Assembly (NCBI GenBank): GCA_023653145.1
Contig: JAMNXM010000001.1
Coordinates: 1 to 43,463 of the forward strand
Direction of reading: 5' to 3'
DNA from: Minisyncoccota bacterium
GTDB lineage: Bacteria; Patescibacteriota; Minisyncoccia; Phycocordibacterales; Phycocordibacteraceae
DNA length: 43,463 nt
Numbering within the stretch: the first letter of the stretch is position 1; each line of letters begins with the position of its first letter. Shown here piece after piece: positions 7,217 through 41,882 of the stretch. Both the position numbers and the translations under genes were made by a program. The notes below the pieces were generated by a model that did not search any database, was not told where the DNA came from, and saw only the letters and a list, made by a program, of their open reading frames with translations.

Positions 7217-7232
7217 GTCTTGACTGCATTAT

Positions 7233-7266: not shown

Positions 7267-7280
7267 TATAGTAAGTGCAT

Positions 7281-7745: not shown

Positions 7746-7761
7746 GTAGCACGCTACTAAT

Positions 7762-7790: not shown

Positions 7791-7809
7791 GTGCTGTACG
7801 CTGAAGTGT

Positions 7810-8262: not shown

Positions 8263-8265
8263 CGC

Positions 8266-9093
8266 ATGGATGCTCTGATTGTTGTCTTTTTGTGTATCCT
8301 CGGCGCCTGTGTCGGTAGTTTTTTGAATGTGCTGGTGCTCCGCTTCGGATTCCGCGAGCGGCCGAGTCCGCGCTCGAGGTGTGCATCATGTACCACTACA
8401 CTTAGCCCGCGCGACCTTATTCCGGTTGTGTCATACATCATGCTTCGTGCACGCTGCCGTACCTGCGGGAGTAGACTGAGTGCTCAGTACCCGATCGTAG
8501 AACTGCTCACTGCGGGAATATTTCTACTGACGTATGCAGTACTGCGTCCTGAAACTCCTTTTGACTACCTTTCGTTCGTTGCGTACCTCGGCTTTTGGTC
8601 CGCCCTTGTGGCACTCATTGCTTATGACGTGCGTCACACGCTTATCCCGCTTCCGTTTGTCTATGCACTGTGGGTGTTTGCCGTAGTTCACACAGCCGTG
8701 AGTGCGCTCGAGTTGCAAAGTACAGGACCTCTAGTCGATGCCGCTTTCGGTATGGTGTGTGTCGGCGGTTTTTTTGCGGCGCTCTCCATTTTGACGCGAG
8801 GGCGGGGAATGGGTATTGGGGATGCGTATGTCGGGGGAGCGATGGGACTCATGCTTGGAAGCGCTTCAGGGATCGTTGCTGCAATTCTTGCGGTCTGGAT
8901 TGGCGCTGTATGGGGACTTGTGCTCATCGTTGTTGCGCACAGTCTCAGAGTGTTTCACCGTACCTATGGGTTACGGCGCGTTACACTAAAGACGGAGATC
9001 CCGTTCGCGCCGTTTTTAGCGCTGGGTGCCGTGATTGCATTTGCAACTGGGCTCATGCCGCTCGATCTTGCGTTCTGGGTGTATCCGTTTTAA
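8266..9093 (+). CDS. pilD: Prepilin peptidase / N-methyltransferase PilD (A24 family)
   Basis: The N-terminus has a CxxC...CxxC motif (CASCTTT...CRTCGS). It is polytopic, with catalytic Asp contexts (IAYDVRHTLIP and GMGIGDAYVGG). Confidence 0.85.
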   Translation: MDALIVVFLCILGACVGSFLNVLVLRFGFRERPSPRSRCASCTTTLSPRDLIPVVSYIMLRARCRTCGSRLSAQYPIVELLTAGIFLLTYAVLRPETPFDYLSFVAYLGFWSALVALIAYDVRHTLIPLPFVYALWVFAVVHTAVSALELQSTGPLVDAAFGMVCVGGFFAALSILTRGRGMGIGDAYVGGAMGLMLGSASGIVAAILAVWIGAVWGLVLIVVAHSLRVFHRTYGLRRVTLKTEIPFAPFLALGAVIAFATGLMPLDLAFWVYPF

Positions 9094-9657
9094 ATGGTAC
9101 GAGGATTCTCGCTTATTGAACTTCTGGTGGTCACAGGCATTTTTGTCGTGATTACTGGCGTCGTACTTGCAAACAATGCACAGTTCAATAGTTCAGTACT
9201 CTTGGGGAACGCTGCCTACGACATTGCACTTTCGGTTCGCCAGGCGCAAGTATACGGACTTTCAACCCAGGCGTTTTCAGGACAGTTCCAGGTGGGGTAT
9301 GGACTTCACTTTGCAAGCCCAACTGAATATCTCTTATTTGCTGATCTCGATGAGGACAATAACAAACGCTATGACGCTGGTGTAGACCAAGTGGTAGCAA
9401 CCTATGCGCTGGGACGCGGGCACACAATCAAGCGTTTCTGTGGTATCCGTGCCGACCTCACCGAGGAGTGCTCAGATAATGCATCTGCGCTCACGCACAT
9501 CGATGTTGGTTTTTTGCGTCCAAACCCTGATGCAACGATAACCGGGGACAACCCGTCAGCGTATTCGATTGCACGCATTACCATTCAATCAACAGGCGGG
9601 CAAACACGCACTGTATCTATTCAGTCCACTGGCCAGATTTCCGTAACCAACCCATGA
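9094..9657 (+). CDS. Minor pilin / pseudopilin with a prepilin-type N-terminal methylation motif
   Basis: The N-terminus reads MVRG|FSLIELLVVTGIFVVITGV. It lies directly after pilD, and its stop overlaps the next start (ATGA). Confidence 0.75.
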   Translation: MVRGFSLIELLVVTGIFVVITGVVLANNAQFNSSVLLGNAAYDIALSVRQAQVYGLSTQAFSGQFQVGYGLHFASPTEYLLFADLDEDNNKRYDAGVDQVVATYALGRGHTIKRFCGIRADLTEECSDNASALTHIDVGFLRPNPDATITGDNPSAYSIARITIQSTGGQTRTVSIQSTGQISVTNP

Positions 9658-10235
9658 TCAGAGGATTCACGTTAATTGAACTGATGGTCGCGGTGTCGAT
9701 CTTCGCTATCGTGATGATGGTCGGCGTCGGAGCACTCCTCACTATGGTTGAAGCAAACAAGCGCGCACAAGGTATCAACCAGGTGAGCAATAACCTCAAT
9801 GCTGCTGTCGAGCAGATGTCGCGCTCGATACGTGTTGGCTCGACGTATTACTGCGGGGATACCGCGGTTCCACCGTCTCCACTCGTACTCACACAGCCGA
9901 GGGATTGCCCAAACAATGGAGGACTATTGTTCGCGTTCGAGGCAACGGGTGGTGACCCAGACGACATAGGGGACCAGGTAGTGTTTCGTCTCAATGGTAC
10001 ACAACTCGAGCGCTCCCTTGAGTCTGGTGCAAACGGCACTTGGGTTGCACTCACTGCGCCCGAAGTGCAAATAAGTAACTTCCGTTTCTACGTAACTGGC
10101 TCTACGCCGCTTGCAGGAGGCGACACCGAGCAGCCTCGCGTTCTTATGATTATTCGCGGTGTCGCAGAACTGCAAGGTGTACAAACTGACTTTACCGTCC
10201 AGTCCTCAGTAACTCAGCGCCTTATTGATATATGA
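9654..10235 (+). CDS. Minor pilin / pseudopilin
   Basis: The N-terminus reads MIRG|FTLIELMVAVSIFAIVMMV. It overlaps both neighbours by ATGA. Confidence 0.75.
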   Translation: MIRGFTLIELMVAVSIFAIVMMVGVGALLTMVEANKRAQGINQVSNNLNAAVEQMSRSIRVGSTYYCGDTAVPPSPLVLTQPRDCPNNGGLLFAFEATGGDPDDIGDQVVFRLNGTQLERSLESGANGTWVALTAPEVQISNFRFYVTGSTPLAGGDTEQPRVLMIIRGVAELQGVQTDFTVQSSVTQRLIDI

Positions 10236-10735
10236 ACCACACACGCACCGGATTCACACTACTTGAGACGCTTGTTGCTGTAGCAATCTTGCTGATGTCC
10301 CTTTTGGGGCCGTTTGCTATTGCGCAGCAGTCGTTAAAGAGTTCGTACTACGCACGCGATCAGGTGACCGCGTACTACTTGGCGCAAGAGGGAATAGAGT
10401 TTGTCCGTGCTGTCCGAGACCAAAATTATCTCTCTGCCGCTCCTTGGCTTGATGGTATTGGAGCCGTCTGCACTGACGTACCATGCGAAGTCGATTATCC
10501 AAACTTTACTTACAGTGCCTGCCAGAATGGCGTGTGTACGCCACTCAGAATTTCTGCTGCGGGAGGATTGTTTAATCACGCTACAGGCGAGCCGTCAAAG
10601 TTTACACGCACCGTCACACTCACACCCGTCGTCGGAAACCCCGAGAGTATGATCGTATCAGTAACCATTTCATGGCGCTCAGCCGGAGTGTCTCGCGTCT
10701 TTACCTTACAAGAGCGTTTATTTGATTGGCTATGA
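10232..10735 (+). CDS. Minor pilin / pseudopilin
   Basis: The N-terminus reads MNHTRTG|FTLLETLVAVAILLMSL, with Glu+5 present. Confidence 0.72.
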   Translation: MNHTRTGFTLLETLVAVAILLMSLLGPFAIAQQSLKSSYYARDQVTAYYLAQEGIEFVRAVRDQNYLSAAPWLDGIGAVCTDVPCEVDYPNFTYSACQNGVCTPLRISAAGGLFNHATGEPSKFTRTVTLTPVVGNPESMIVSVTISWRSAGVSRVFTLQERLFDWL

Positions 10736-11262
10736 AGTCCCCACGCGCATTCACTTCGACAAGCGACAGAGCATATGAAAGTCTGCTTTCATATGTATGG
10801 CGCGCCGTCGGAGCAAAACCACAAAGAGGTTTTACATTGCTCATGTCGGTTTTGATTTCGAGTGTGCTTCTTGCGCTCGGGTTTGAGATATACAACCTTG
10901 CATCTAAAGAGGTGATACTTTCATCCGCTGGTCGTGAGTCGCAGTTTGCGTTTTTTGCAGCAGACACTGGAGTAGAGTGTGCGCTCTGGGCGGACACAAC
11001 GCTCGACGCCTTTGCGACATCGTCACCTCTTACTGAAATCACGTGTGGCACAGCGCCGTCACTACTTACGCGAGTACAAAACGGCACCGACTACGTGAGC
11101 ACTTTTACCTTTACGTCGGGTGCGGGGAACAGTGCACAGTGTGTTGATGTACGTGTGACGCGTGGCGACCCCAAGCGTACCGTCATCGAGTCATTTGGTC
11201 ACAATACCTGCAACATTGCGGACCCGCGCCGCCTTGAGCGTGCCATCCGCGTGACGTATTAA
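10732..11262 (+). CDS. Atypical pilin-like protein (PilX-position) with a long N-terminal extension and no Glu+5
   Basis: The cleavage-site region reads ...AKPQRG|FTLLMSVLISSVLLALGF. I chose ATG 10732 because it overlaps the upstream TGA (ATGA); the track start at 10726 is TTG. Confidence 0.6.
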   Translation: MKSPRAFTSTSDRAYESLLSYVWRAVGAKPQRGFTLLMSVLISSVLLALGFEIYNLASKEVILSSAGRESQFAFFAADTGVECALWADTTLDAFATSSPLTEITCGTAPSLLTRVQNGTDYVSTFTFTSGAGNSAQCVDVRVTRGDPKRTVIESFGHNTCNIADPRRLERAIRVTY

Positions 11263-24790: not shown

Positions 24791-26158
24791 ATGCGGTCCC
24801 TTTTTGTGTTCCTCGCTTTTTCTGTTGTCCTAAGTGCGAGTGCGCTGTTGACCCCGATTCATGCTGAGGCATTTTTGACTGACCAAGACCGGACACGACT
24901 TGAGGAAGAGTATCAGAAGATCCAGACAGAGATAGCCGAGTGGCAGAAAGTCTTGGATGAGACGCGGGCAAAAAAGAATACCCTCCAAGGTGACGTCACG
25001 TCTCTGAACGCCCTAATAAAGAAGGCTGAGGCAGAAATACGCCAGCGCGGCGTATCGATTTCAAAACTCTCCGATGAGATTAAACGGAAGACGGAACTCA
25101 TATCCTCCTACGAGGAGCGACTCGAGCGCGGGCGGGAGTCCTTGGCTGAGATGCTCCGTAAACAGCAAGAGGCAGATGAACGCTCGCTGGCTGAACTGGT
25201 ACTCTCTGCCGATACGTTCTCGACCCTTTATGGAGACATCGAACTCATTGCGGTGGTGCGGAGAGACTTACAACTTTTGTTCCATGAGGTACGTGAAATA
25301 AAAGAGTTGACCGAGGAGGAGAAGAAAAACCTTGCCGCGCGACGCGACCAGGAACTTGATGCAAAATACGACGTTGAGCAGAGTAGAAAACAGATTGCTC
25401 AAAACGAGGCAGAGAAAAAGAAACTTTTAAACATCACGAGAGACCAAGAGAAAACCTACTCGACGGTGCTTGCAGAGCGCCAGCGGAGAGCAGAGCAGAT
25501 ACGGAGCGCACTCTTTCCACTCCGCGACACTGAAGGTATATCGTTTAGTGTTGCGCTCGACGCCGCAAGTCGCGCAAGTCAGGCAACCGGGGTGCGTGCG
25601 TCTCTTATCCTCGCGATCCTCTCGCAAGAATCCGATTTGGGTAAAAATGTGGGTTCTTGCTATGTGACCGATCTCGAGTCGGGAGATGGGGCAGGGAAGA
25701 ACACAGGCACGGTATTCCAGCGTGTGATGAAATCGCCCCGAGACACGCAGCCGTTTGAGCGCATCACGAACGCCCTCGGACTTCCGTGGGCAGTGACTCC
25801 AGTGTCGTGCCCGTTGGGGAGGATCTATACGGCAAACCGTGGGTTCGGTGGAGCGATGGGCCCGTCCCAATTTATTCCTTCGACCTGGCAGTTGTATGAG
25901 GCTCGGCTTTCCGATAAGTTGGGCGTCCAGACAGCAAACCCATGGGACGCGCAGCACGCCATTATGGCGACGGCTCTCTACCTCGAGGACCTTGGTGCAG
26001 ATGGGGCAACGTACACAGCAGAGCGGAATGCCGCCTGCCGCTACTACTCGGGCCGCTCCTGCGACAATCGACGCCCGTCAAACTCGTTTTATGGAGATTC
26101 TGTGATAAAAAAAGCGGAATCGTTCCAAGAGAACATAGACTTTCTTAAGAACATTTAG
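24791..26158 (+). CDS. Secreted coiled-coil protein with a C-terminal lytic murein transglycosylase (MltB/SLT_2-like) domain
   Basis: It has a signal peptide (MRSLFVFLAFSVVLSASALLTPIHAEA) and about 230 aa of heptad-rich coiled coil. The C-terminal part contains LAILSQESDLG (catalytic Glu context) and GGAMGPSQFIPSTW...DAQHAIMATALYL. Confidence 0.75.
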   Translation: MRSLFVFLAFSVVLSASALLTPIHAEAFLTDQDRTRLEEEYQKIQTEIAEWQKVLDETRAKKNTLQGDVTSLNALIKKAEAEIRQRGVSISKLSDEIKRKTELISSYEERLERGRESLAEMLRKQQEADERSLAELVLSADTFSTLYGDIELIAVVRRDLQLLFHEVREIKELTEEEKKNLAARRDQELDAKYDVEQSRKQIAQNEAEKKKLLNITRDQEKTYSTVLAERQRRAEQIRSALFPLRDTEGISFSVALDAASRASQATGVRASLILAILSQESDLGKNVGSCYVTDLESGDGAGKNTGTVFQRVMKSPRDTQPFERITNALGLPWAVTPVSCPLGRIYTANRGFGGAMGPSQFIPSTWQLYEARLSDKLGVQTANPWDAQHAIMATALYLEDLGADGATYTAERNAACRYYSGRSCDNRRPSNSFYGDSVIKKAESFQENIDFLKNI

Positions 26159-26199
26159 ATACAGGAAGTGGGGAAAACGAAAGTCAGTCAATAGTACGG

Positions 26200-26208
26200 T
26201 GGTACTAT
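26200..26208 (+). promoter_or_regulatory. Extended -10 box TGGTACTAT, 9 nt upstream of ATG 26218 (candidate promoter of the giant-protein operon)
   Basis: Read directly from the sequence. Confidence 0.4.
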
Positions 26209-26217
26209 TCGCGTAGT

Positions 26218-26901
26218 ATGCCACCCACCACTGGTGCTCCTATTACTCCTACGTTAGGGCGCATGCCAAAACTCGGACCATCCGGAATGGATCGTCGGGG
26301 TCAGGCACTCCTCACGTTTATTACCCTCACCTTTACTGTAAGCGCGGTGTATGTTGCGTTCATTGCCGCATCCTTTGGAGATGCTCGAATTCTCGTTATG
26401 ACGGAAGACGGAGTTCGTACGATTGAAACCATTTCACTCGGGACAGGGGAGCGAACAGTTACCGCACGGGACACCGAGATCAACGCAAGCGTCTTCAATA
26501 CGTTCTACATGCAAGACGGTACTGCAATTACTGTCGATAGCCCTGGTATTGTTCGTAAAAATGGTACCGATGTAGAAAGCACCGTGGTGCTCGTTGCCTC
26601 TCCGGTCCCCGCAACAGACCAAACGCCGCTTGCAGTGTGGAACGACGCCGCGCGCATTGCGTGGGTCAGTCCATCCGACGGCTCACTCCAGGTGTTTGAG
26701 CGGAATGCACGTGGCGCATACGCCCCTCTGTTTATAGATCAGAATTTGTCAGTAGAGTCACTCCAGTTTGCTAAGGACGGGCAGTCGCTCGTTGTTTCAA
26801 TCGCGTACGGTGCCCAAAGCGAAGTTGCAGTTCTTTCTCTTGCAACCGGTGAACTTGAGCCGGTCGCTGCCATCCCAGGGTTTGTATCCGTTCTTCCATA
26901 A
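26218..26901 (+). CDS. Membrane-anchored PD40/TolB-like repeat protein, cassette copy 1
   Basis: It has an N-terminal TM helix (ALLTFITLTFTVSAVYVAFIAASF). Its C-terminal half aligns with ORF 29794-30714 (PLAVWNDAARIAWVSPSDGSLQVFE vs PFAVSLDGMRVAWAAPADKSLQVFE). The start is uncertain (26218, 26263 or 26287). Confidence 0.6.
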   Translation: MPPTTGAPITPTLGRMPKLGPSGMDRRGQALLTFITLTFTVSAVYVAFIAASFGDARILVMTEDGVRTIETISLGTGERTVTARDTEINASVFNTFYMQDGTAITVDSPGIVRKNGTDVESTVVLVASPVPATDQTPLAVWNDAARIAWVSPSDGSLQVFERNARGAYAPLFIDQNLSVESLQFAKDGQSLVVSIAYGAQSEVAVLSLATGELEPVAAIPGFVSVLP

Positions 26902-26903
26902 CT

Positions 26904-29792
26904 ATGAAATACTTCTTTGCACTCACACTTTTTGTACTCGCAAGTACAGGGACCGCGCACGCATTCGCTGTTGTTGAAAACGCACAATGCGTCGGCGGGA
27001 CATTAGTCGCCTCGCACACTGATGTGATTGATGGAGGGGGGCTCGCGCCATACACGAACGCAAAAATTTTGGTTGCATCGGACTGTTCTATGCTCACTCC
27101 TGCGGGCGGGTGCTGTTCAGCAAAGGTTTCAACAAATGGCGGCGGAAAAGGCGGCGCTGTTATCCCCTATACATGGTTCCATTACGACATTTTCACTAAT
27201 GCAACAGTTCAGACCGGGTTTGCCGCCGGTCAGACGGGTCCGCTTGCAAATGAAGCCCCCTTTGAGAGGGCTGTCGGTAGACAGTTTAAGTATTTTGCTG
27301 GTCCGGGAGGTGGTGCTGCGGTGCCAGTGACGGCATCCTTGGTAGCCAACCCAACTGCAATTGGTTCAGGAGAGCAGGCGCTCTTGTCGTGGTCCTCAAC
27401 TGGTGCGGCCACCTGTGTCGGAACGAATTTTTCAACGAACGGCGCAACATCCGGGTCTGTAGTTACCACACCATCTGCAACGACACGCTACTCAATCACC
27501 TGCTCAGCAGCGTCAGCAACACCGCGACCAACTATCATTGACATGAACGCTGATGGCGGGTCATATCAGTCAAACGCAGCATTGATTACTGATATGCAAC
27601 AGAATGGAGGGGTTGCGTTCAGTTCGAGGTACGGGATCTATTCCGACAGTGCAACGACAGACCGTATCTGCAAGATGGTCCACGGCCCAAATGCAACGCA
27701 AGCTGGCTTTGACGTGACAAAGTACAAATCGCCTAAGAACAATGCCATCGTGAAGTGGGACGGTACCAAGTGGATAGCGTTCGGTGCGCGCTCTGATAAT
27801 CGCAAGATCCGCTATGTATTTAAGTGTAGTGTCCCAGGAACGGTGAGCACCACGTCTGGTGAAAGTGCAACCGCGCATGCCACCGTACAAGTTTCTGCTG
27901 TAAATACGCTGAACGTTTCGTGTCGTGCTCACCCAGGACGCGCAGGGTTTAATGAGGACGTACTCTGGTCTTCGACTGTATCTGGTCCCGCAGGTACCTA
28001 CGCCTACTCCTGGACTGGGACAGACTCGTTGTCAGGCACAGGCAACCAGGTCTTTACGCGCTACACCACGCCAGGGGAGAAGAAGGCATGGCTTACAGTA
28101 ACGTACACTCCAGGTACAACACCGCCACCAGCGCAGGCGCAACAAAGTATTGGTGGGTATGAATGGAAGTCCACAGAGAGTTCGCTCGAGGAAACGTGTA
28201 CTGGTGGCGGAGCAAACTTTTTGCCACGATGCCCATCACCACTACCCGCATGTACTGCTGAGAATGTGAATACTACATGCTGGAACGTTCAAGGCAGCGG
28301 AAGCGGAGAGTGTAATCCTAAACTTGCTGCAGAGTTTGGCCTCGTAACTCAAGTTTCCTGCACAGCACCTTCTGCGGGCGTTTTACCCCCTCCACCACCA
28401 ACCAATCCGCCTTCTGGCGCAGTACTGCCAAAGCCAAGTGCATGTCCTGCAATTGCGTGGGCTGTACCCATCACACCTTGTGGCGGCACCTGGGCGCCAT
28501 CATACGACGCAGCTGGGTGCCAAAGTGGTTGGCAGTGCGTTGCCTCTGAGGCACGCCGTACTGAGTTCTACTCGCAAAGTACTGTGTTGCAAAAAATACA
28601 GCACGTAGCTCGTATTGCAGAAAAAGCAATTACAAACGCCACTATTTTGCCTGCCGTATATGCACAGGAGGCGTGCATTCCACCAGGAGAGTACGTTGTG
28701 GATTCGCCAAATGTCACTGCACAAGTTGCGCTTACGCTACTAGATGAGCCGCGGTGCTGCTCTCAGACTGCCCTAACAGGGGGTGAATACTTTAATGATA
28801 TTGTCTGCAGCGGTACCGGTGGCGTTGCAGGTCAGTGTTCGGCAGGGCAAACGGCAGTAGCTGTGTTTAATCCTCAGGGCGCAAGTTGTGCCGGAGGTTC
28901 TGTGGTTGGTAGAACAAGTGAAGTCCTTGATGGTGTTCAGATTGGTATGTGGCCAGATGGTTGGCTTGCGGGTCAGTGTGCTGAACTTGGCGCACAAGCA
29001 GGGGATTGCTGTGAGTATTCGCAGCGCGCAAGTAACAATACGGGTGGCGGGTTCCCACCAAACTCGTACTACCAGATTCGCGTCATTCGTGGAGGATCAT
29101 TTTCAGCGAGCGAATCATCATATATTCAGACTCCACAATGTTCAGGTCTCAATCAGAATTACTCGTGCAGTTCTGTCGCAGGTAGTGTAAGCACGCAGTG
29201 CTCAGGTGGGCCAGGAGACCCACCACCGCCACCTCCACCACCACTCGGTGCCCAGCGCGTAACGGTGCAATGCGACAACTCAGTTACTGTCGGTACTGGA
29301 GAGGGTGAGGACACGAACCAATGTACTGATGGCATAGACAATGACCGCGACGGCCGCACCGATGCAGATGACACAAACTGTGCTAATGGTGGCAGAAGTG
29401 AAAGTGGTGTCACGACACAATGTTCTGACGGCATCGACAACAACGGAGACGGTACCATCGACTTCCCGGAAGACCCATGGTGCGCCTCAGGAAACGACAA
29501 TCGAGAGGCTCCAGACCCAATCGACATGACGCTCACCGGGCCTGCGCTTATCAAGAAGAATCAATCCTGCACCATCTCACTTTCAGCACGGAACGTCACT
29601 TCGTGCACCTTGAGTGGCCCAGGACTCTCGCAAGGATTCACTGCGATTAATGGGTTTGTAAGCGCGTCATCTGTGGTGACTCCTGCTCTTGCACAGACGT
29701 CAACCTATACGCTCAGTTGTCGCGGACTAGACGGTAAGACTGCTGCAAAGTCGGTCGACTGCAAAGTTGCACCAACCTTCGAAGAGTTCTAG
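26904..29792 (+). CDS. Giant secreted Cys-rich multidomain surface protein 1 (962 aa)
   Basis: It has a signal peptide (…STGTAHA|FA). The domains are: two copies of a C-x-GG...CC[SE] module, an Ig-like repeat (LSWSS..C.GTNFST), a TDRICK domain, a PKD-like domain (YAYSWTGTDS), a P8 tract, two QC-x-DGIDN-x-x-DG Asp-rich motifs, a final Ig-like domain, and an APTFEEF tail. Confidence 0.85.
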   Translation: MKYFFALTLFVLASTGTAHAFAVVENAQCVGGTLVASHTDVIDGGGLAPYTNAKILVASDCSMLTPAGGCCSAKVSTNGGGKGGAVIPYTWFHYDIFTNATVQTGFAAGQTGPLANEAPFERAVGRQFKYFAGPGGGAAVPVTASLVANPTAIGSGEQALLSWSSTGAATCVGTNFSTNGATSGSVVTTPSATTRYSITCSAASATPRPTIIDMNADGGSYQSNAALITDMQQNGGVAFSSRYGIYSDSATTDRICKMVHGPNATQAGFDVTKYKSPKNNAIVKWDGTKWIAFGARSDNRKIRYVFKCSVPGTVSTTSGESATAHATVQVSAVNTLNVSCRAHPGRAGFNEDVLWSSTVSGPAGTYAYSWTGTDSLSGTGNQVFTRYTTPGEKKAWLTVTYTPGTTPPPAQAQQSIGGYEWKSTESSLEETCTGGGANFLPRCPSPLPACTAENVNTTCWNVQGSGSGECNPKLAAEFGLVTQVSCTAPSAGVLPPPPPTNPPSGAVLPKPSACPAIAWAVPITPCGGTWAPSYDAAGCQSGWQCVASEARRTEFYSQSTVLQKIQHVARIAEKAITNATILPAVYAQEACIPPGEYVVDSPNVTAQVALTLLDEPRCCSQTALTGGEYFNDIVCSGTGGVAGQCSAGQTAVAVFNPQGASCAGGSVVGRTSEVLDGVQIGMWPDGWLAGQCAELGAQAGDCCEYSQRASNNTGGGFPPNSYYQIRVIRGGSFSASESSYIQTPQCSGLNQNYSCSSVAGSVSTQCSGGPGDPPPPPPPPLGAQRVTVQCDNSVTVGTGEGEDTNQCTDGIDNDRDGRTDADDTNCANGGRSESGVTTQCSDGIDNNGDGTIDFPEDPWCASGNDNREAPDPIDMTLTGPALIKKNQSCTISLSARNVTSCTLSGPGLSQGFTAINGFVSASSVVTPALAQTSTYTLSCRGLDGKTAAKSVDCKVAPTFEEF

Positions 29793-29793
29793 C

Positions 29794-30714
29794 ATGGTAG
29801 ATGTGCGCGCACTCCTTACCAGTCACGAAGCACGGCTCACACTTTTTGGTGTTGTGTGTGCTGTCGTTCTTGGGTCAGTAGTACTTTGGCTCTACTTCGT
29901 TATTCCCGTCAAAGGAACTGCCTCTGCGACTCTGGTGCAGCCGGATCGCTCACAACGGGCAGTTTCTATCACGCTTTCTACAATGGCATGGGAGGGGTAT
30001 CGATTTCGCTCTGCTGAACGGTCATTCATTGTTGCCGCAGTACCAAGTCCAACTAATGATCGAGTAGCATACGTCACACGAACTAAGGACAAAGTAATGC
30101 GCGTGTCTGTTGCGGACGGTGATGGCGACGGTGGAGTAGAGGTCACGTCTGGTGAAACAGGTATTCCAAGTTGGTCACCTGATGGTGGAAGTATTGCGGT
30201 ATCACGTGTGCCAGACGGCGTCACTGAGACCGGAGTCCCAGAGAATTGGTCAGTCGTCCGAGCACTGCCACGTGGTGACTCACTCGAAGTGGGTCGAGGT
30301 TACCGCCCGTTTCCATCACCAAATCAGAGGACGTTTGCACTCACATCAGACGGCATCGCCCTTTTATCGTACAGCGATACTGAGCCGCTCCTTGTCATAG
30401 CAAGTCCAGTTCCGGTGCCACTTACCACCCCATTTGCAGTGTCATTAGATGGTATGCGCGTTGCGTGGGCTGCACCAGCCGATAAGTCACTCCAAGTGTT
30501 TGAAAATGTAAATGGCTACTTTATCCCGCTTCTTCTCAAGACTGATGTGCATCCAGACTCGCTCGCGTTTTCGCCCGATGGGGACTATCTATTAGTTTCG
30601 AAGAATACCGAAGCGACATCGACACTGAGTATTGTGCGCATATCTGACGGACGGACGCGCTTGGTGGGGGAGATAGGTGGCTTGGTCAAACTTCATGCAT
30701 GGCTCTATGAATAG
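29794..30714 (+). CDS. Membrane-anchored PD40/TolB-like repeat protein, cassette copy 2
   Basis: It has a TM helix (LTLFGVVCAVVLGSVVLWLYFVI) and PD40 signatures (IPSWSPDGGSIAVS, LAFSPDGDYLLVS). ATG 29794 lies 1 nt after the upstream TAG. Confidence 0.7.
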   Translation: MVDVRALLTSHEARLTLFGVVCAVVLGSVVLWLYFVIPVKGTASATLVQPDRSQRAVSITLSTMAWEGYRFRSAERSFIVAAVPSPTNDRVAYVTRTKDKVMRVSVADGDGDGGVEVTSGETGIPSWSPDGGSIAVSRVPDGVTETGVPENWSVVRALPRGDSLEVGRGYRPFPSPNQRTFALTSDGIALLSYSDTEPLLVIASPVPVPLTTPFAVSLDGMRVAWAAPADKSLQVFENVNGYFIPLLLKTDVHPDSLAFSPDGDYLLVSKNTEATSTLSIVRISDGRTRLVGEIGGLVKLHAWLYE

Positions 30715-33700
30715 GAATTATATTAAACAGGTACTTGTCGTTGGGATTATCGGTGCTTGGTTCGCGTTAGTACCTAGTGTACTTGCGTTAGACTCAAAGT
30801 TTGTAGCGCTTATCGATAGGGTAGATGGAGGAGGAATTGATGGCGGTGGAGATTTTGGATGGGAGTATCCAGAAATTTATTTCTTCACCGCTTCGCCTGC
30901 ATCAGTAACTTCAGGGGGCAGCGTCACACTTTCGTGGAGTGCAAGTCTTGGCTCATGCGTCGGAACAAATTTTACTGCGGGGTCACTTGACGGTACGCGC
31001 ACAGTAAATCCGACCGTTACGACTACCTATACACTGACTTGTTCAAACGTGTACGGGAGTGATACATCTTCAGCCACAGTATCTGTTGCATCCGCTACGA
31101 GTGATTTGACCGCAGGAGGCGTTACCCCAAGTAGTGGGGTAGTTGGAACTCCGGTGTCATTGTCAGCGACCGTGTCAAACATTGGTGGTGCTTCGACAGG
31201 TGCTGGGTTTACGAATCTCTTCCAGCGTGCGACAGATGCGTCTGGCTCAAACCCTACGGACATTGGCACACACTCGGGCTCAGCACTTGCGGCAAGCGGG
31301 TCAGCGGCCGCAACAGTTTCATATACATTTCCGTCTGCGCAAACGTGGTACGTGCGGGTCTGTGCTGACAAAAATTCAGCGTCTTCTGCAGGAACAATCA
31401 CCGAATCAAACGAAGGGAACAATTGCGGTGCGTGGTCTCTAGTGTCGGTGTCGGCAGTTCCGGGCGCACCAACCATAACGATCGCGGCCAATCCGTCGAA
31501 TATAACGAGTGGTCAGTCAGCAACGCTCACCTGGTCATCGTCAAACGCAACCACATGCACGGGCACCGGGTTTAGTACGGGTAACCAAACCTCTGGTTCA
31601 GTATCAGTTTCGCCAACTGCAACACAAATTTATTCAATTTCTTGTAGTGGTGTTGGTGGGACAGGAACGGGGAGCGCAACAGTAACAGTTGCGACGGCGC
31701 CAACCGCAACAACGCAAAACGGCAAGCTCTGCTCTGGTGGAACGTATATTGGCGCAACGACTGGCACCACAAACAGTTGCGTCTCATACTGTACTTCGGT
31801 AAATGCAAGTTGTTGTAGTACGTATTACACCTACGGAGATTATGCGAACGACTACGCCTGCTACGCATTCTCAAATACCTCGTCTGTCATTAATGCCCCC
31901 ACAACTGGCGGATGCGATTTTGGAGATGGAGGTGGATTCAGTGTCGATGGAGGTGCTGGGGGAGACCCTATCTGTACGTGGACGGACTACTCCGCAACGT
32001 TGCTTAGTTATGGCCCAGCGGTAACTGCGAGTCTCGTAACTAATCCGACCAGTATTTCTGCGGGACAACCCGTTATTATTACGTGGTCGTCTGCCAACGC
32101 CACGTCGTGCACGGGTACTAACTTTTCGACTGGAGGCGCAACGAGCGGTTCAGTTTCGGTAAATCCGACACTTACTACGGTGTACACACTCTCCTGTACT
32201 GGGGCAGGTGGGACTGCTACTGACACAAAGACACTCACGGTAAACGTATTTACTGCAACCTGCTCTGCAACTCCGAATCCCGTCACGGTTAACCAGCCCG
32301 TTTCGTGGTCGTCTGCTGCTACCGGTGGTACAGGGTCATACACGTACTCATGGAGCGGGAGCGATAGTCTTACAGGGTCAACAGCATCTCTCACCAAAAC
32401 GTACGATACATTGGGAGAAAAGGTTGCAACACTGACCGTTACGTCTGGCTCCGAGACGATTACTACGGCATGTACGGGCACTCCATGCCAACAGGCTTCG
32501 TGTACCTGTTCAGGTGGTGGGTGTGGAGTCACAGTGAGGGAGGGCATTAGTACTGACGTGTCCGCAGGTGCACCAGTCATAAATTCAGGAACTCCAATCC
32601 CAGGAGGTACGCTTACGTTTAGTGCTCCCGTGTTAAACATCGGAAATAATTCTATCTCAAGCGTCTTTCAGAATCGCTTTCAGATAGATGTGGGGAACGA
32701 TGGGAGTTACAACGTCACTCTCGATACTGGAGGGTCTGCTGGGTCGCAGTTTGTCCTTGGCTATGGTCAAAAATGTACGGGTGGCAGTGTAGTTGCCACA
32801 GATTCTATCGATACGTACGGAACCGGAGATCTATCCGACACCATACAGTCGATGTGTGAGCAGAGTTCATCAAGTGGTCAATGCTGCAGTGCAACTATTA
32901 CCACGCAGGGTGGTGGAGGTGGTGGCGGAGGAGGTGGTGGCGGAGGAGGTGGTGGGATCCAAGATTGGGTGGGGCGATTTACTGAGCGCAATGTTGCTGC
33001 GGTGTATAAAAGCCTTGCACTCACTTCGTATACCATTGACCTTACGGTGCGCTCAGGTGCATGGACACAGCAGGTGTGCACAACCGAAGCCTGCTATTTC
33101 GGCACCTGGCAATCATTGACCGGAACACAGTTTGATATCCCGTTCGGACAAACTGGAGGTTCAGTAAGTCCGTCGTGGACCAATGTGCCTGCGGGTACGC
33201 ACAAGGTGCGTATGTGTACCGACAGCCCAACGTCGCAACTCAGTGAGACGGATGAGGGTAACAACTGTGGGGCAGACACGGTCTTTACAGTAAGTGGTTT
33301 TGACCTGAGTGCAGGTACTCCAGGAGTAAACTCGGGGACGCTCCTTGGTGGGCAGGCAGTAACCTTCTTTGGCTCTATCTCAAACAACCCTGCGTACTAT
33401 GTTGCGACAGGACAGTGCCAAGCTGCGGTCTATGTTACGCAGGGTGGGACGTGTGCACTCACACTGAGTAAAGATCAATTGGTGTGGTCAACATCAGGTG
33501 CAACTATTGTCAGTGAGATAGCGCCGTTGACTAATTCTCCGACCATTCCTGCAACGGGAGGTGGTGGGATTATTGAGCGCGATATGAATACCTACACGAC
33601 GCCGTATTACAACGCGGACTCGAGACTTATTGCAGACATGGCGGCCAATGGTGTGACCTATACAGATGATGGTATACACACAGGTGACAACAAATCGACA

Positions 33701-35188
33701 GACCGTATCTGTAAGGTTGTGTATGATGCTGCAGCGTGGGTCTCGGCGTTTGATGTTACTAAATACAATTCATGCGGCAACAATACGATAGTACGACACA
33801 ACGGGACTTCGTGGAGTAAAATTGGTGCCTGCTCGGATAACAGAAAAGTTCGATATACATTCAAGTGTGCGAAACTCGGGTCTCCGTATGCGTTCTCTGG
33901 CACGCACGTATTCCCGACGCCGCTCGCTCCGGGGACACACACCTATTCAATGACCACAAATGCGTGCTCTGGCTCTGCGCCAGCAACCACCATAACTCTT
34001 CAAAGTGGTGCGCAATGCACTGGCGGTACACAAGTCGCACAAGATAACGATCTAGTAGACGGTGCGGCATTTTCAAATGGACTTGATGCTATCCGAATGC
34101 AGTGTGAGTCTATGACTCCCGCGGGCGGTTGTTGTAGCGTTGTTGTAGAAGAGACCCTTGCGCATCCAAACCAACCAGTGGAGACTCGGTATACGTATCG
34201 CGCCTATACGGGAGCATCGACTGTACCGCAGACATCAACAACTGAGTATATTGCAGGAGATAGAACTATAAATACACACTATTTTGCGGGTACATATGCA
34301 GGAACATGTAGTACTTCGTGTATAGCCTCGATTACAGTTCCTGAGCCTGGAAGCACTATGTGTTCACTCACCACAACACCTTCAGTCATTTCTTCCGGAG
34401 GTAGCGCAACTCTGTCGTGGGAAACAAGTAACGCGTCGGCGTTCTCTATAGACAATGGGATTGGTGCGGTGACCCCAGTAGGAGCAGGGAGTCGCTCGGT
34501 GTCGCCAACACAGACAACAACGTATACTGGCACGGTAACCACGGACCCAGGCGTATTTGCGCTCACTGGTACTGTGCCTAACCAATTCCAAATCGATCTG
34601 GGTAATAACGGCACCTGGGACGTGACGCTTTCGGGCACCGAACTTGCTACGCTCGGGGTCAATCAGTCCGCACAAGTCACGTCAGTTTCATGGACTGCGG
34701 TAGCAGGCACACATGCAATACGCCTTTGTGCGAATACGCCAAGCGCTATCAGCGAAGGGGATACGACGAACAACTGTGGTAACTCGTTTACCTTTACCGT
34801 GACGCCACCGACGCAGTGTCAGGACGGTGTCGATAACAATGGCAACGGCCTCATAGACCTTGCAGATCCCGCATGTACAGGCACTGGAGACACCGCAGAG
34901 GAGACGTTCTCTGATGCGGCACTCTCACTCTCTGTAAACCAAACGACGGTGCGGAGCGGTGCGTCAGTGACCTTAACCTGGACTGCGGTGGATGTTGTTG
35001 ATGACTCATGCTCGATTGTAGGGTCTACTGGGGGCACGTGGGCAGTAAGTGGTTCGGGTGGAACGCAGGTAGTGGGGCCAGTCACGGCAGAGACCACCTT
35101 TGCGCTTCGCTGTCGCGATATGCAAAACAACGAGGTAGTAGAGGCTGAGACGACGGTCCGCCTTGCACCTAAGTTCGAGGAGATCTAG
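30707..35188 (+). CDS. Giant secreted Cys-rich multidomain surface protein 2 (~1493 aa)
   Basis: The signal-peptide start is MNRNYIKQVLVVGIIGAWFALVPSVLALD, and ATG 30707 overlaps the upstream stop. It has five Ig-like repeats and three CARDB-like domains (…ESNEGNNCG, ETDEGNNCG, EGDTTNNCG), two of which are interrupted by insertions. It also has three C-x-GG...CCS modules, a G16 tract, a PKD-like domain, a TDRICK domain, a QCQDGVDNNGNG motif and an APKFEEI tail. Confidence 0.85.
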   Translation: MNRNYIKQVLVVGIIGAWFALVPSVLALDSKFVALIDRVDGGGIDGGGDFGWEYPEIYFFTASPASVTSGGSVTLSWSASLGSCVGTNFTAGSLDGTRTVNPTVTTTYTLTCSNVYGSDTSSATVSVASATSDLTAGGVTPSSGVVGTPVSLSATVSNIGGASTGAGFTNLFQRATDASGSNPTDIGTHSGSALAASGSAAATVSYTFPSAQTWYVRVCADKNSASSAGTITESNEGNNCGAWSLVSVSAVPGAPTITIAANPSNITSGQSATLTWSSSNATTCTGTGFSTGNQTSGSVSVSPTATQIYSISCSGVGGTGTGSATVTVATAPTATTQNGKLCSGGTYIGATTGTTNSCVSYCTSVNASCCSTYYTYGDYANDYACYAFSNTSSVINAPTTGGCDFGDGGGFSVDGGAGGDPICTWTDYSATLLSYGPAVTASLVTNPTSISAGQPVIITWSSANATSCTGTNFSTGGATSGSVSVNPTLTTVYTLSCTGAGGTATDTKTLTVNVFTATCSATPNPVTVNQPVSWSSAATGGTGSYTYSWSGSDSLTGSTASLTKTYDTLGEKVATLTVTSGSETITTACTGTPCQQASCTCSGGGCGVTVREGISTDVSAGAPVINSGTPIPGGTLTFSAPVLNIGNNSISSVFQNRFQIDVGNDGSYNVTLDTGGSAGSQFVLGYGQKCTGGSVVATDSIDTYGTGDLSDTIQSMCEQSSSSGQCCSATITTQGGGGGGGGGGGGGGGGIQDWVGRFTERNVAAVYKSLALTSYTIDLTVRSGAWTQQVCTTEACYFGTWQSLTGTQFDIPFGQTGGSVSPSWTNVPAGTHKVRMCTDSPTSQLSETDEGNNCGADTVFTVSGFDLSAGTPGVNSGTLLGGQAVTFFGSISNNPAYYVATGQCQAAVYVTQGGTCALTLSKDQLVWSTSGATIVSEIAPLTNSPTIPATGGGGIIERDMNTYTTPYYNADSRLIADMAANGVTYTDDGIHTGDNKSTDRICKVVYDAAAWVSAFDVTKYNSCGNNTIVRHNGTSWSKIGACSDNRKVRYTFKCAKLGSPYAFSGTHVFPTPLAPGTHTYSMTTNACSGSAPATTITLQSGAQCTGGTQVAQDNDLVDGAAFSNGLDAIRMQCESMTPAGGCCSVVVEETLAHPNQPVETRYTYRAYTGASTVPQTSTTEYIAGDRTINTHYFAGTYAGTCSTSCIASITVPEPGSTMCSLTTTPSVISSGGSATLSWETSNASAFSIDNGIGAVTPVGAGSRSVSPTQTTTYTGTVTTDPGVFALTGTVPNQFQIDLGNNGTWDVTLSGTELATLGVNQSAQVTSVSWTAVAGTHAIRLCANTPSAISEGDTTNNCGNSFTFTVTPPTQCQDGVDNNGNGLIDLADPACTGTGDTAEETFSDAALSLSVNQTTVRSGASVTLTWTAVDVVDDSCSIVGSTGGTWAVSGSGGTQVVGPVTAETTFALRCRDMQNNEVVEAETTVRLAPKFEEI
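32909..32956 (+). repeat. In-frame GGN tract encoding 16 consecutive glycines (contains a 15-nt unit GGAGGTGGTGGCGGA repeated twice plus a partial copy)
   Basis: I read the codons directly: GGT GGT GGA GGT GGT GGC GGA GGA GGT GGT GGC GGA GGA GGT GGT GGG. Confidence 0.95.
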
Positions 35189-35208
35189 TTGCTAAATACG
35201 GCCTTTCT

Positions 35209-35217
35209 TGGTACTGT
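35209..35217 (+). promoter_or_regulatory. Extended -10 box TGGTACTGT, 7 nt upstream of the rpmE ATG 35225
   Basis: Read directly from the sequence. Confidence 0.4.
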
Positions 35218-35224
35218 AGTCCTC

Positions 35225-35479
35225 ATGAAGGCTGATATTCACCCACAAGGTTTCCGTCCCGTCATTTTTGATGATGTGGAGGCTGGCGTCCGTTTTCTTA
35301 TTGGCTCAACAGTCCGTACATCCGAGAAGGCAAAGTGGGACGACGGTAAAGAGTATGACGTCTTTACGGTAGAAATCTCATCAGCATCGCACCCGTTTTA
35401 CACTGGCAAGAAGGTCACCATTGACCGCGCTGGTCGCGTCGAGCGCTTTAAGGCTCGCGCCTCAAAGGCAAAGAAGTAA
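35225..35479 (+). CDS. rpmE: 50S ribosomal protein L31, type B (no CxxC zinc motif)
   Basis: It reads MKADIHPQ...[14 protein letters not shown]...GRVERFK and contains no Cys residues. The track start at 35189 is a non-ATG extension. Confidence 0.88.
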
Positions 35480-35489
35480 CTTTTAAACC

Positions 35490-35518
35490 GCGCTACACTT
35501 ACCTTGTAGCGCTTTTTT
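35490..35518 (+). terminator. Rho-independent terminator after rpmE, ending 2 nt before the prfA ATG
   Basis: The stem is GCGCTACA / TGTAGCGC with a 7-nt loop, followed by TTTTTT. Confidence 0.75.
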
Positions 35519-35520
35519 CT

Positions 35521-36480
35521 ATGGAGCTTGATGAGTATCGCAAAGACCATCGCACCACGTTCCTTGCGGGTGAGTATGAGCGTCTGGGGGGAGAGTTAGA
35601 GAAAGCACAAAGTCTCAAGGTAAGTGACCCGACTCTGGCAGAACTTGCTGATGAAGAAATAGCAACACTTGAGACACAACGCACTGACCTGTGGCGCCAG
35701 ATGGAAAAGATCGTCGCCGAAAGCGACGCTGCCGAGCGCGAGGCGGTCGCTGCAGTCATGGAGTTCCGTGCAGCAGCAGGTGGAGACGAGGCGGCTTTGT
35801 TTGCCGAAGAACTTGCACGCATGTATCAGCGCTATGCAGAGCGTCGCGGGTGGGAGGTAAAACTCCTCGACGGACTCAAAGCCTTTGAGATAAAGGGTAA
35901 GGCAGTGTACGAGGCGCTCCAGTACGAGACAGGGGTGCACCGTGTTCAGCGTATTCCTGCGACGGAGAAGAATGGCAGAATCCACACCTCAACAGCATCC
36001 GTCGCCATTTTGCCTATTAGAAAGTTTACCAAGACGGTACTGAACCCCGCGGACCTTGAGATGGAGTTTTCGCGCTCGGGTGGGGCAGGTGGGCAGAACG
36101 TAAACAAGGTTGAAACGGCAGTGCGTTTGGTGCACAAGCCAACCGGCCTTGAGGTGCGCTCGCAGTCAGAGCGCTCGCAGGCTGCAAACCGTGAAAAGGC
36201 AATGCAAATTCTTGCCGCAAAGCTTGAGAACTTGAACGAAGAAAAGGCAGCCAAAGAGCACTCTGAGGCCCGAAAGGCGCAAATTGGGACTGGAGACCGG
36301 TCAGAGAAAATCAGGACGTACAACTTCCCCCAAGATCGTTTGACTGATCACCGCATTAAGGAGTCATGGCACAACCTCCCAGGGATTATGGAGGGGGACT
36401 TGGACCCTATTATGGATACACTCCGCTCCAAAGTCGCTGAGGCTGGGGGTATTGGCGCCGCGTTGCCCGAGGATGAGTGA
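35521..36480 (+). CDS. prfA: Peptide chain release factor 1 (short N-terminus, 319 aa)
   Basis: It has the PAT tripeptide anticodon ([14 protein letters not shown]) and the GGQ motif ([16 protein letters not shown]). Confidence 0.9.
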
Positions 36481-40727: not shown

Positions 40728-41882
40728 CTAGCGAATTGTTGCGCCAAATTCTTCTCTCGTTGCTGCTTCGACACGAGTATGAAGTGCTTCGACTTCATCG
40801 CTGGTGAGCGTCCGCTCTATCGAACGGTACGTGATCCGATAGGCATAACTCATCTTGTCGGCACCAAATTTTTCATCGTTCTCATATTTATCTATGAGTT
40901 GAACCTCTTCCACCAAATCTCCTGCGATATCGCGTACGGTGTCAAAGTAATCGTTTGGAACGAAGGTTTTTGAGACTATGAATGAGATGTCACGAATAGA
41001 GGGCGGAAACTTTGATACATCTTTGTACACATGCCCGAGCATGAGTTGTTTTTTTATTCGCTCATCAGTCGACCAGAGTAGGCGAATGTCGGGAAGCGCC
41101 ATTGATGCGATGGCAGGGCGCTCAATACCAAAACCGAATGCCCACCCGTGGTAACCTTCAACTCCCATTTTCTTCAGAACACTCGCTTTTGGCATACCTG
41201 AACCGAGGAGTTCAAGCCACTCACCCTTAGCAGGGCCTTCTGCAGCGGTACCCTTAACATTGAGCTCTACTTCGAACGATGGATCTGTGTATGGGAAGGT
41301 GTCCGGATTAATGCGGTATTTCATTTCAGGACCAAAGATCGCGTGCACAATCTCGCCAAGTGCCGTGTGCAAGTCAGCAGGTATAACAGGTTGCGACAGA
41401 GGTGCTATATACCACCCTCCAAACTGATGGAAGACGTTCATGTGACGACTGTCTACTTCGTCCTTGCGGTACACCTTGCCATAGCAGAGCGCACCCATAG
41501 CCTCGCCACGGGCAATACGAGCCTTAACGGTAGGGTCGTTTAAGTAGTAGTACCAAAATACGGTGTCATGTGTACGTAAAATATTTTTCTCATCGACATA
41601 GTACGTGTCTGAGGTGCTGCGCGCAGGGTGTTCAGGAGGGAAGTCGAAGAGATCGAACGAGATATCAGTTGGGACGATTTCAGGAATGTTGATTATATCG
41701 AAGCCGGAAAATGCAGGCGCCTGCTTTACGCGCTCGGCAATATCATAGAGTGGAGAGCCTGGCGTACGCGACAAGTCGGGCATCGAAAGGTAGCGCTCCA
41801 TACGTCGCGCTTCTGCGTCAGTCCGACCCTTGAGGTGTGCAAGGAGTCTCTGTTCCTCGTCGCGGGGGATATTGATTTCCAT
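40728..41882 (-). CDS. pheS: Phenylalanine--tRNA ligase: alpha-type catalytic core fused to a C-terminal FDX-ACB anticodon-binding domain (mitochondrial/monomeric-type architecture)
   Basis: The class IIc motifs are HPARSTSDTYY, YRKDEVDSRHMNVFHQ, FPYTDPSFEV, WLELLGSGM and AFGFGIERPA. The C-terminal ~95 aa reads SKFPPSIRDISFIV...GDLVEEVQLIDKY...YRITYRSIERTLTSDEV, which is an FDX-ACB fold signature. Confidence 0.85.
   Translation of the reverse strand: MEINIPRDEEQRLLAHLKGRTDAEARRMERYLSMPDLSRTPGSPLYDIAERVKQAPAFSGFDIINIPEIVPTDISFDLFDFPPEHPARSTSDTYYVDEKNILRTHDTVFWYYYLNDPTVKARIARGEAMGALCYGKVYRKDEVDSRHMNVFHQFGGWYIAPLSQPVIPADLHTALGEIVHAIFGPEMKYRINPDTFPYTDPSFEVELNVKGTAAEGPAKGEWLELLGSGMPKASVLKKMGVEGYHGWAFGFGIERPAIASMALPDIRLLWSTDERIKKQLMLGHVYKDVSKFPPSIRDISFIVSKTFVPNDYFDTVRDIAGDLVEEVQLIDKYENDEKFGADKMSYAYRITYRSIERTLTSDEVEALHTRVEAATREEFGATIR

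Follow-up and report, generated by a model that had tools for sequence, protein, structure and literature searches.

A recurrent four-cysteine domain in two giant secreted proteins of a Minisyncoccota bacterium

The stretch of DNA considered here as the window comprises the 43,463 nucleotides of contig JAMNXM010000001.1, and carries on its forward strand the genes of two giant proteins, giant 1 and giant 2, in which a cysteine-containing module of about 100 amino acids recurs. A first-pass annotation, made from the letters of the sequence, had listed this module at five places, and the peptide strings it quoted are all found in frame at the positions given for them, within two open reading frames of the + strand. 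Four of these places are occupied by copies of one autonomous domain, named g1_a, g1_b, g2_b and g2_c after the protein in which they reside, and the remaining place by a shorter unit, the mini-module g2_a. The features of the two giant genes that are relevant to the module are the following.

26904-29792 (+): giant 1 coding sequence, 962 amino acids, a secreted modular surface protein as read from its translation
26964-27308 (+): module copy g1_a, subtype A; giant 1 residues 21-135, directly after the signal peptide; Cys 29, 61, 70 and 71; ends with KYFAG
28872-29207 (+): module copy g1_b, subtype B; giant 1 residues 657-768; GGGFPPNSYYQIRV; C-terminal Y-x-CSSVAG
30677-35188 (+): giant 2 coding sequence, 1503 amino acids as listed, a secreted modular surface protein as read from its translation
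31715-31882 (+): mini-module g2_a; giant 2 residues 347-402; Cys 352, 368, 372, 379, 380 and 395
32552-32746 (+): N-terminal half of a CARDB-like domain interrupted by g2_b; giant 2 residues 626-690
32759-33112 (+): module copy g2_b, nested in the CARDB-like domain; giant 2 residues 695-812; Cys 700, 727, 736 and 737
33122-33301 (+): C-terminal half of the CARDB-like domain; giant 2 residues 816-875
33998-34330 (+): module copy g2_c, subtype C; giant 2 residues 1108-1218

The module copies of the two giant proteins

Giant 1, which is identical to the representative protein P0001, starts with a classical signal peptide (MKYFFALTLFVLASTGTAHA, cleaved before FAV at an AHA site), followed by the first cysteine module, an Ig-like domain, an 'IIDMNADGG' module, a PKD-like domain, other Cys-rich modules, the second cysteine module, two acidic double-disulfide repeats, a C-terminal Ig-like domain and an APTFEEF tail. 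Giant 2 contains CARDB, Ig-like and PKD-like domains, three of the listed module sites and an APKFEEI tail; its true start is likely the ATG at 30707, an internal Met of the listed reading frame, which gives the signal peptide MNRNYIKQVLVVGIIGAWFALVPSVLA. Cysteine accounts for 3.3-4.2% of the residues of both proteins. Compared as a whole to Pfam (E ≤ 0.1), the giants match only CARDB (E = 7.9e-13 in giant 2) and, weakly, PKD_4 and MopE, every match lying outside the modules, and compared to NCBIfam they match only the acidic double-disulfide repeats NF033662, which are also located away from the modules.

The pattern C-x-GG-[ST]-x-[VILAY]...C...CC occurs, among the 51.7 k residues of the six-frame translation of the window, at only four of the listed sites, the fifth site having a shorter spacing. 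Pairwise local alignments among g1_a, g1_b, g2_b and g2_c reach z = 6-20 against shuffles. Using leave-out profiles, built solely from members of the family with under 40% identity to the copy under test and controlled with 1000 shuffles per copy, scores of 64.6 (g1_a), 52.9 (g1_b), 26.6 (g2_b) and 59.1 bits (g2_c) are obtained, against shuffle maxima of 9-12. All four firm copies possess the Cys1-x-GG-[TS] start, the Asp located about 14 residues further on, Cys2, the G-x-CC motif, the aromatic hairpin and the C-terminal motif that, together with a score above the shuffles, characterize the main type. The domain extends from about six residues before Cys1 to its end motif [YFW][FW]AG, replaced by Y-x-CSSVAG in subtype B, and both the size of about 100 residues and the Gly-rich loop following the CC pair, a majority feature of the family, had been correctly recognized. 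In addition to Cys 662, 692, 702 and 703, g1_b contains the extra Cys 746, 755 and 766. In g2_b, the loop following the CC strand includes a tract of 16 Gly (32909-32956) written with mixed GGT, GGA, GGC and GGG codons; the tract counts 16 residues in the window, 14 at the same site in the related strain L031 and 9 in the giant 2-like relative P0015, and presumably forms a length-variable, flexible surface loop.

The mini-module g2_a shares the C-x-GGT...C...CC outline across its first ~38 residues. Its pairwise comparisons to the other copies give z values of only 1-4, and its score against the main-family profile (-1.1 bits) is reached by 123 of the 1000 shuffles. The claim of five copies thus holds for the four that exceed all shuffles and are homologous beyond chance, whereas the third listed copy (31721-32020), at shuffle level, is not demonstrably a member. 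In an hhalign comparison, the small family built around g2_a matches the main family with a probability of 50% (P = 1.7e-4), the alignment being confined to the first 38 columns, from Cys1 and strand 1 to the CC pair. Neither the second hairpin nor the C-terminal motif of the main family is present in g2_a, which displays two extra Cys. The unit of ~55 amino acids with six Cys is conserved, occurring in two copies in P0015 and being 100% identical in L031. To judge from these alignments, g2_a is possibly a truncated variant related to the main family.

The profile of the four good copies finds neither g2_a nor anything else in the window. A sixth, degenerate copy was considered at residues 591-640 of giant 1 (C-IPPGEYVV...RCCSQTALTGGEYF) and rejected, with a score of -0.4 bits equalled by 650 of the 1000 shuffles; the region is also replaced by an unrelated sequence in L031. 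A recent duplication or gene conversion among the copies at the DNA level was similarly rejected, no DNA repeats linking them.

Module g2_b is inserted in a CARDB-like domain of giant 2, CARDB (PF07705) aligning to its flanks and not to the module itself. Once g2_b is excised, the Pfam CARDB match runs without interruption over profile positions 13-98 of 101, with a score of 21.7-21.8 bits that lies just below the cut-off of 22.7, and the alignment of the spliced halves to the other two CARDB(-like) domains of giant 2 continues unbroken through the junction (z = 13.8 and 20.2). The same nested arrangement is present in P0015. Because of this insertion and of the location of g1_a at the N-terminus of mature giant 1, the module must be regarded as an independently folding, insertable unit, i.e., an autonomous domain.

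Relatives, predicted fold and cysteine pairing

The module is rare. Among 1.84 billion representative proteins searched by HMMER with the four-copy profile, 20 proteins match at E ≤ 1e-3, 17 of which, giant 1 included, are real. The three others (P0005, P0016 and P0017), eukaryote-like or bacterial tandem-repeat proteins that match profile positions 37-88 only, were discarded as spurious. The relatives other than giant 1 are secreted, modular proteins of 400-1430 amino acids built in the same style, inside which local searches located 26 copies; their 90%-identity clusters are singletons or pairs, and the sole name attached to them in any source is 'hypothetical protein'. Their recognizable partner domains are CARDB and PKD-like domains, plus a VWA domain in P0019, seven of the ten relatives scanned being devoid of any Pfam match (E ≤ 0.001). 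In giant 1 and at least eight relatives, the mature protein begins with a copy of the module. Further copies occur on three short metagenome contigs (L001-L003) found with the subtype B alignment. Since copies also lie directly upstream of prfB-rpsB in nine GTDB Patescibacteria genomes fetched via ribosomal protein S2 (L004-6, L008-11, L013 and L015), a giant 2-like gene with a subtype C module is syntenic across the clade. As far as these sequences indicate, the domain appears confined to secreted, adhesin-like surface proteins from a single clade of ultrasmall bacteria within the Paceibacterota, a group of the Patescibacteria or candidate phyla radiation (CPR). Another unannotated Cys-rich module, C-x-GTW-x-Y-x-x-[ST]D-x-SD-x-x-C ... 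C-K-x-N ... Y-x-C, is observed in the relatives P0007, P0008, P0011, P0012, P0014 and P0019.

Other collections gave no relative: the subtype B alignment found none in 185,579 GTDB genomes, the subtype C alignment had no match in IMG/VR, and g1_a had no tblastn match in 50,697 phage records. A word-indexed protein search with the four-copy or the 25-copy alignment was also devoid of matches, though the collection holds giant 1 and its relatives, and this result is read as a limit of the index and not as absence.

In the 44 non-redundant copies available, all four Cys are invariant (44/44), which confirms the conserved Cys spacing noticed at first, and a few other positions are kept in 89-98% of the copies: G8 (42), G9 (43), T10 (39), D20 (40) and G45 (41).

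The earlier statement that the module maps to no known domain family is borne out by the Pfam, NCBIfam, PDB-sequence and Foldseek searches; both a profile hidden Markov model run over protein sets and a structure comparison of the predicted model, two of the checks that had been proposed, ended without reaching an annotated family or a known fold. Compared to Pfam-A (E ≤ 1), 25 isolated copies gave three single-member chance matches only, the best with E 0.064. Three isolated copies compared to NCBIfam/TIGRFAM, including the models for Cys-rich repeats and C-terminal sorting, matched no family at E ≤ 10, and the 25-copy profile had no hmmsearch match (E ≤ 10) among 177,635 distinct PDB sequences.

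A confident AlphaFold2 model of g1_a was obtained with the 25-copy alignment (predicted local distance difference test, pLDDT, 84.5; predicted TM-score, pTM, 0.78; all five models at pLDDT 82-84.5). A model built with only the four window copies reached a pLDDT of 43.7 and was discarded. The retained model is an alpha+beta structure with a hairpin-helix-strand-hairpin-strand order:

Residues 4-20: long hairpin, with Cys1 and GGT in strand 1 and the conserved Asp at the end
Residues 21-29: variable loop of low confidence
Residues 30-41: alpha-helix bearing Cys2
Residues 46-54: strand bearing the CC pair, preceded by TP-x-G
Residues 55-65: Gly-rich variable loop
Residues 66-81: second hairpin, aromatic, of the YTWFHY type
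Residues 82-103: long variable loop
Residues 104-111: last strand, with KYFAG

The segments most variable in length and sequence (21-29, 55-65 and 82-103) are also the least confident ones in the model. From the up-down order of the predicted elements, these loops should be directed toward the same end of the domain. With a fold match defined as Foldseek E ≤ 0.001 or TM ≥ 0.5, nothing significant was found in the PDB (best E 0.9, query TM ≤ 0.33) or in BFVD (best E 0.12, query TM ≤ 0.38). The module is therefore an undescribed sequence family and, as far as the PDB and BFVD tell, an undescribed fold, but extracellular domains that serve as modules of bacterial surface proteins are a familiar kind.

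The vicinal Cys-Cys disulfide suggested at first is unlikely. A vicinal disulfide, with its eight-membered ring, normally sits in a tight turn, and neighbouring side chains of a beta-strand point to opposite faces. In the model, the CC pair belongs to a beta-strand, and there are exactly two further invariant Cys, located in strand 1 and in the helix, that are available as partners. For this reason two non-vicinal disulfides, Cys1-Cys3/4 and Cys2-Cys4/3, appear more likely on the basis of the model. The Cys counts are even, with four in a type A copy and six in the mini-module. A DsbA/MdbA-like oxidoreductase encoded next to VKOR is widespread among CPR genomes (10.1101/335083). In the expression 'disulfide-stapled binding module' used for these copies by the first-pass annotation, the recurrent module is genuine, the stapling plausible in view of secretion and of the four Cys of type A, and the binding suggested by the context in which the module occurs.

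Strain variation and genomic setting

A point of comparison is L031, a JGI contig of 757 kb in which the gene order is kept: SLT lytic transglycosylase, 227-residue protein, giant 1 (942 amino acids), propeller protein, giant 2 (1494 amino acids), ribosomal protein L31, PrfB, S2 and EF-Ts. The DNA of both contigs is 94-97% identical over 16904-40245, with the exception of three gaps:

28115-28874: giant 1, residues 404-657
30714-30829: N-terminus of giant 2
33961-34330: module copy g2_c

At g2_c, an identity of ~94-96% in blastn alignments stops at 33960 and returns at 34331, the span comprising ~12 codons upstream plus the domain, and ending with the domain. A homologous module with 48% protein identity occupies the site in L031, between flanking 40-residue bins that are 93-100% identical. 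Within the swapped segment, the synonymous sites are saturated (pS 0.90), which points to replacement by an old allele via recombination and not to rapid point mutation. No DNA repeat longer than 39 nt and no template/variable repeat exist within 26000-36000, so that neither gene conversion within the window nor a diversity-generating retroelement (DGR) explains the swap. The other three module copies are under purifying selection relative to L031, with a ratio of non-synonymous to synonymous substitution rates (dN/dS) of 0.07-0.10 (0.07 for g1_b), similarly to giant 1 in its alignable parts (0.01-0.16) and to giant 2 outside the swapped cassette (0.05-0.09).

Within giant 1, residues 404-657 (28115-28874) show no DNA similarity to the corresponding segment of L031 (11212-11911), where different, non-homologous Cys-rich modules are found. 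The block of L031 includes a 'QWYSGNAVP...YWNRS...CYGL' unit also observed in P0003, P0009, P0014 and P0018. This block of giant 1 is a case of domain-level mosaicism by recombination.

The window consists of cellular and not of phage DNA, since it carries a type IV pilus cluster together with housekeeping genes for an NAD-ligase, a GatA-like amidase, GAPDH, a split transketolase, L25, an RF-2-like PrfB, S2 and EF-Ts. Within the GTDB genome set, the S2 protein shares 64-83% identity with those of metagenome-assembled genomes that bear the labels Patescibacteria, Paceibacterota or Parcubacteria, and the source of the window is, on this sequence evidence, apparently a Paceibacterota-like CPR bacterium. 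The neighbouring genes and the other features of the giants are as follows.

12-11262: complete type IV pilus cluster, ~15 kb upstream of the giants, with PilM, PilN, PilO, a PilB-like and a PilT-like ATPase (two T2SSE), PilC, a prepilin peptidase and seven N-methyl pilin-like genes (three pilins and four further N-methyl-motif proteins)
24791-26158: SLT lytic transglycosylase, 455 amino acids, preceding the giant 1 gene region
Between the SLT gene and giant 1 (region 24791-26901): protein of 227 amino acids to which the scans assign no function
27534-27830 and 33569-33871: second shared module of ~100 amino acids (giant 1 residues 211-309, giant 2 residues 965-1065)
29767-30714 (+): TolB/PD40-like beta-propeller protein, 315 amino acids, with weak PD40 and TolB matches and a hydrophobic N-terminal segment
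29769-29789 (+) and 35165-35185 (+): C-terminal tails APTFEEF (giant 1) and APKFEEI (giant 2)
Giant 1 residues 804-828 plus a second stretch, and giant 2 residues 1378-1402: NF033662 repeats
40728-41882 (-): single-chain phenylalanyl-tRNA synthetase-like protein, 383 amino acids, with a class II core tRNA-synt_2d and a C-terminal FDX-ACB

The SLT protein has weak, below-threshold N-terminal matches to DUF3450 and ATG14, which hint at a coiled coil. Because its gene and that of the 227-residue protein accompany the giants in L031-L032 as well, the five genes may form a surface cassette. The propeller gene, which overlaps the ends of both giant genes, holds the same position in L031 (306 amino acids there). 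As a speculation, the propeller protein may serve as a membrane anchor or receptor for the anchorless giants, e.g., by binding their C-terminal tails. The architecture of the synthetase-like protein, tRNA-synt_2d plus FDX-ACB, recalls the monomeric mitochondrial PheRS and not the bacterial alpha2-beta2 form.

Complete module carriers end with a tail of the type [KR][ILV]xPx[FY]xE[FIQR], from which a few diverge (PISGEI, PRSGEF, LWREI, PKYEET). In the giants and the complete relatives (P0002-P0020, L001-L015), the context of the tail is ...CK[IV]AP[TK]FEE[FI], with the variants PAFREQ, PTFKEI and PKYEET; a conserved Ig-like domain of ~90 amino acids precedes it, and no transmembrane segment follows it. 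The C-terminal domains of both giants match no NCBIfam family at E ≤ 10, and the tail may represent a signal for sorting, secretion or anchoring that is as yet undescribed. The second shared module (z = 33 between the giants), of sequence IIDMNADGG...TDRICK...DVTKY...DNRK[IV]RY[VT]FKC, also occurs in P0003, P0006 (twice) and P0015, and is devoid of Pfam or NCBIfam matches. A DNA repeat of 25 nt (88%) lies inside it (27655-27679 / 33696-33720).

Proposed role and comparison with known systems

Taken together, these data favour, with a probability of roughly 0.55, the reading of the module as a doubly disulfide-stapled extracellular recognition or adhesion module presenting variable loops. After export by the Sec pathway, two disulfides would fasten both strand 1 and the helix to the central strand, and the rigid stapled core would present the three loops variable in length and sequence. 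The domain would thus be an interchangeable building block, used beside Ig-like, PKD-like, CARDB and VWA domains in secreted adhesin-like proteins, and the exchange of whole-module alleles between strains would alter the display or the binding at the cell surface. The module is best guessed to be non-enzymatic, because only T10 and D20 are near-invariant besides the Cys and Gly residues. The adhesin-like context consists of the signal peptide of giant 1, the CARDB domain of giant 2, the VWA domain of P0019, the neighbouring SLT gene and the type IV pilus cluster. In the CPR Peribacteria, large Cys-rich, strain-variable extracellular proteins have been suggested to play a role in attachment (PMC4736985), and a cultured patescibacterium needs multiple adhesins for its epibiotic growth (PMC10633639).

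Several points weigh against this interpretation. A binding role is suggested by context only; the window contains no Dsb or VKOR gene; and groundwater devoid of oxygen is the habitat of many CPR bacteria, so that the formation of disulfides is no more than plausible for this organism. In addition, the replacement of the giant 1 block indicates that mosaicism is general in the giant genes and not special to the module. With respect to novelty, the fold search covered the PDB and BFVD, and a relative may exist in the AlphaFold DB or the ESM Atlas.

The most serious competitor, to which a clearly lower likelihood is given, is that of a purely structural spacer or stalk, in which the stapled module would only serve as a rigid extension of a surface fibre or layer and have no ligand of its own. 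It is in line with the location of the module among Ig-like, PKD-like and CARDB repeats, which are often spacers, with the lack of a conserved polar pocket (Cys, Gly, Thr and one Asp being conserved), and with the tolerance towards the poly-Gly and other length-variable loops. It is less easily reconciled with the copy found at the extreme mature N-terminus of giant 1 and at least eight relatives, since the distal tip is the usual position of binding domains in fibrous adhesins, with the copy displayed as an insertion on a CARDB-like domain, and with the divergent allele maintained at one site between near-identical strains.

A more ambitious version of the recognition role, rather improbable at present, sees in the module an exchangeable specificity cassette of episymbiotic Paceibacterota adhesins with a previously unseen fold, whose alleles would be swapped (33961-34330) for host or ligand recognition, or for escape from phages or host defence. 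The idea that the module is instead a diverged member of a known fold or superfamily, missed by profiles and Foldseek, is held to be somewhat less probable still. Small disulfide-rich domains erode quickly in sequence, the structure comparison covered the PDB and BFVD only, and the comparison with known families relied on sequence-profile searches; against it stand the Pfam, NCBIfam and PDB profile searches, without match up to E ≤ 10 for the latter, and the poor Foldseek values (best E 0.9 for the PDB and 0.12 for BFVD, query TM ≤ 0.38) obtained despite a confident model.

A metal-binding or redox domain, in which the four Cys would bind Zn, Cu or Fe, is very unlikely. A tetrahedral site could be built from four invariant Cys, the water in which the organism lives is probably poor in oxygen, and a weak Cu-binding_MopE match exists elsewhere in giant 1 (E 0.048, residues 834-853). 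However, this match is below threshold and outside the module, the side chains of the CC pair should point to opposite faces of the predicted beta-strand and cannot share one metal, no His, Asp or Glu is conserved near the Cys, and the protein is exported via Sec with a cleavable signal peptide. Similarly, the strong divergence of one module between near-identical strains, in bacteria where DGRs are common, could recall the variable region of such an element at g2_c, but this is effectively refuted by the lack of template or variable DNA repeats within 26000-36000, by the absence of a reverse transcriptase among the window open reading frames scanned with Pfam, and by differences which include indels and saturated synonymous sites across 370 nt and are not adenine-specific. 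Finally, a chance or compositional resemblance, conceivable in proteins rich in G, S and T where the fifth listed copy and residues 591-640 of giant 1 fail the significance tests, is refuted for the four copies by scores of 27-65 bits with independent profiles against ≤ 12 for shuffles, by the 17 database proteins carrying the module with invariant Cys and by the confident AlphaFold2 model, and applies at most to 31715-31882.

Patescibacteria account for a large part of the diversity of bacteria and seem to live in attachment to other microbes, and the proteins mediating their contacts are almost entirely unannotated, a gap that the definition of a domain addresses. The domain is available as an expressible unit of ~12 kDa for structural and binding studies, with an alignment, a model, boundaries, the nested insertion and the subtypes A, B and C, and represents a candidate Pfam entry as well as a handle for following strain-level surface variation in metagenomes. 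If it were a specificity cassette, it would serve as a marker of host range in the genomes of uncultivated CPR bacteria, and a sequence feature would be linked to host specificity in not-yet-cultured organisms. In itself, it adds a further orphan domain to those of modular surface proteins, and is no new kind of system.

With respect to known systems, the top Foldseek match in the PDB, the three-finger/Ly6-uPAR protein GPIHBP1 (6e7k_C), resembles the module as a small, disulfide-rich, beta-rich extracellular domain, but the match is not significant (E 0.9, TM 0.25, 68 columns, 9% identity), and both the Cys pattern and the topology differ. The NF033662 unit, found in both giants, is also a four-Cys unit, doubly disulfide-bonded by its family name, but consists of an acidic DxDxDG-type repeat of 32 residues located near the C-terminus, with no overlap with the module copies. 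The Ig-like, PKD (PF18911) and CARDB (PF07705) domains are, like the module, autonomous extracellular domains of ~100 residues found in the same proteins and presumed to play a role in surface display or attachment. The module differs from them by the lack of any sequence similarity, by an alpha+beta organization with one helix on hairpins in place of an all-beta sandwich, and by its four invariant Cys including the CC pair.

Compared by description, the Cys-rich proteins of Peribacteria (PMC4736985) resemble the giants as large, unannotated, Cys-enriched CPR proteins with a signal peptide, strain variation and a proposed role in attachment or rigidity. They belong to a different phylum, with ~7% Cys against 3.3-4.2% in the giants, and show a weak resemblance to a Myxococcus Cys-rich repeat, whereas the module matches no Cys-repeat model of NCBIfam/TIGRFAM. 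The adhesins required for epibiotic growth in Saccharibacteria (PMC10633639) come from another class of Patescibacteria and no homology to them is claimed; as patescibacterial surface proteins engaged in host contact, they may nevertheless offer the functional analogy for the role proposed here.

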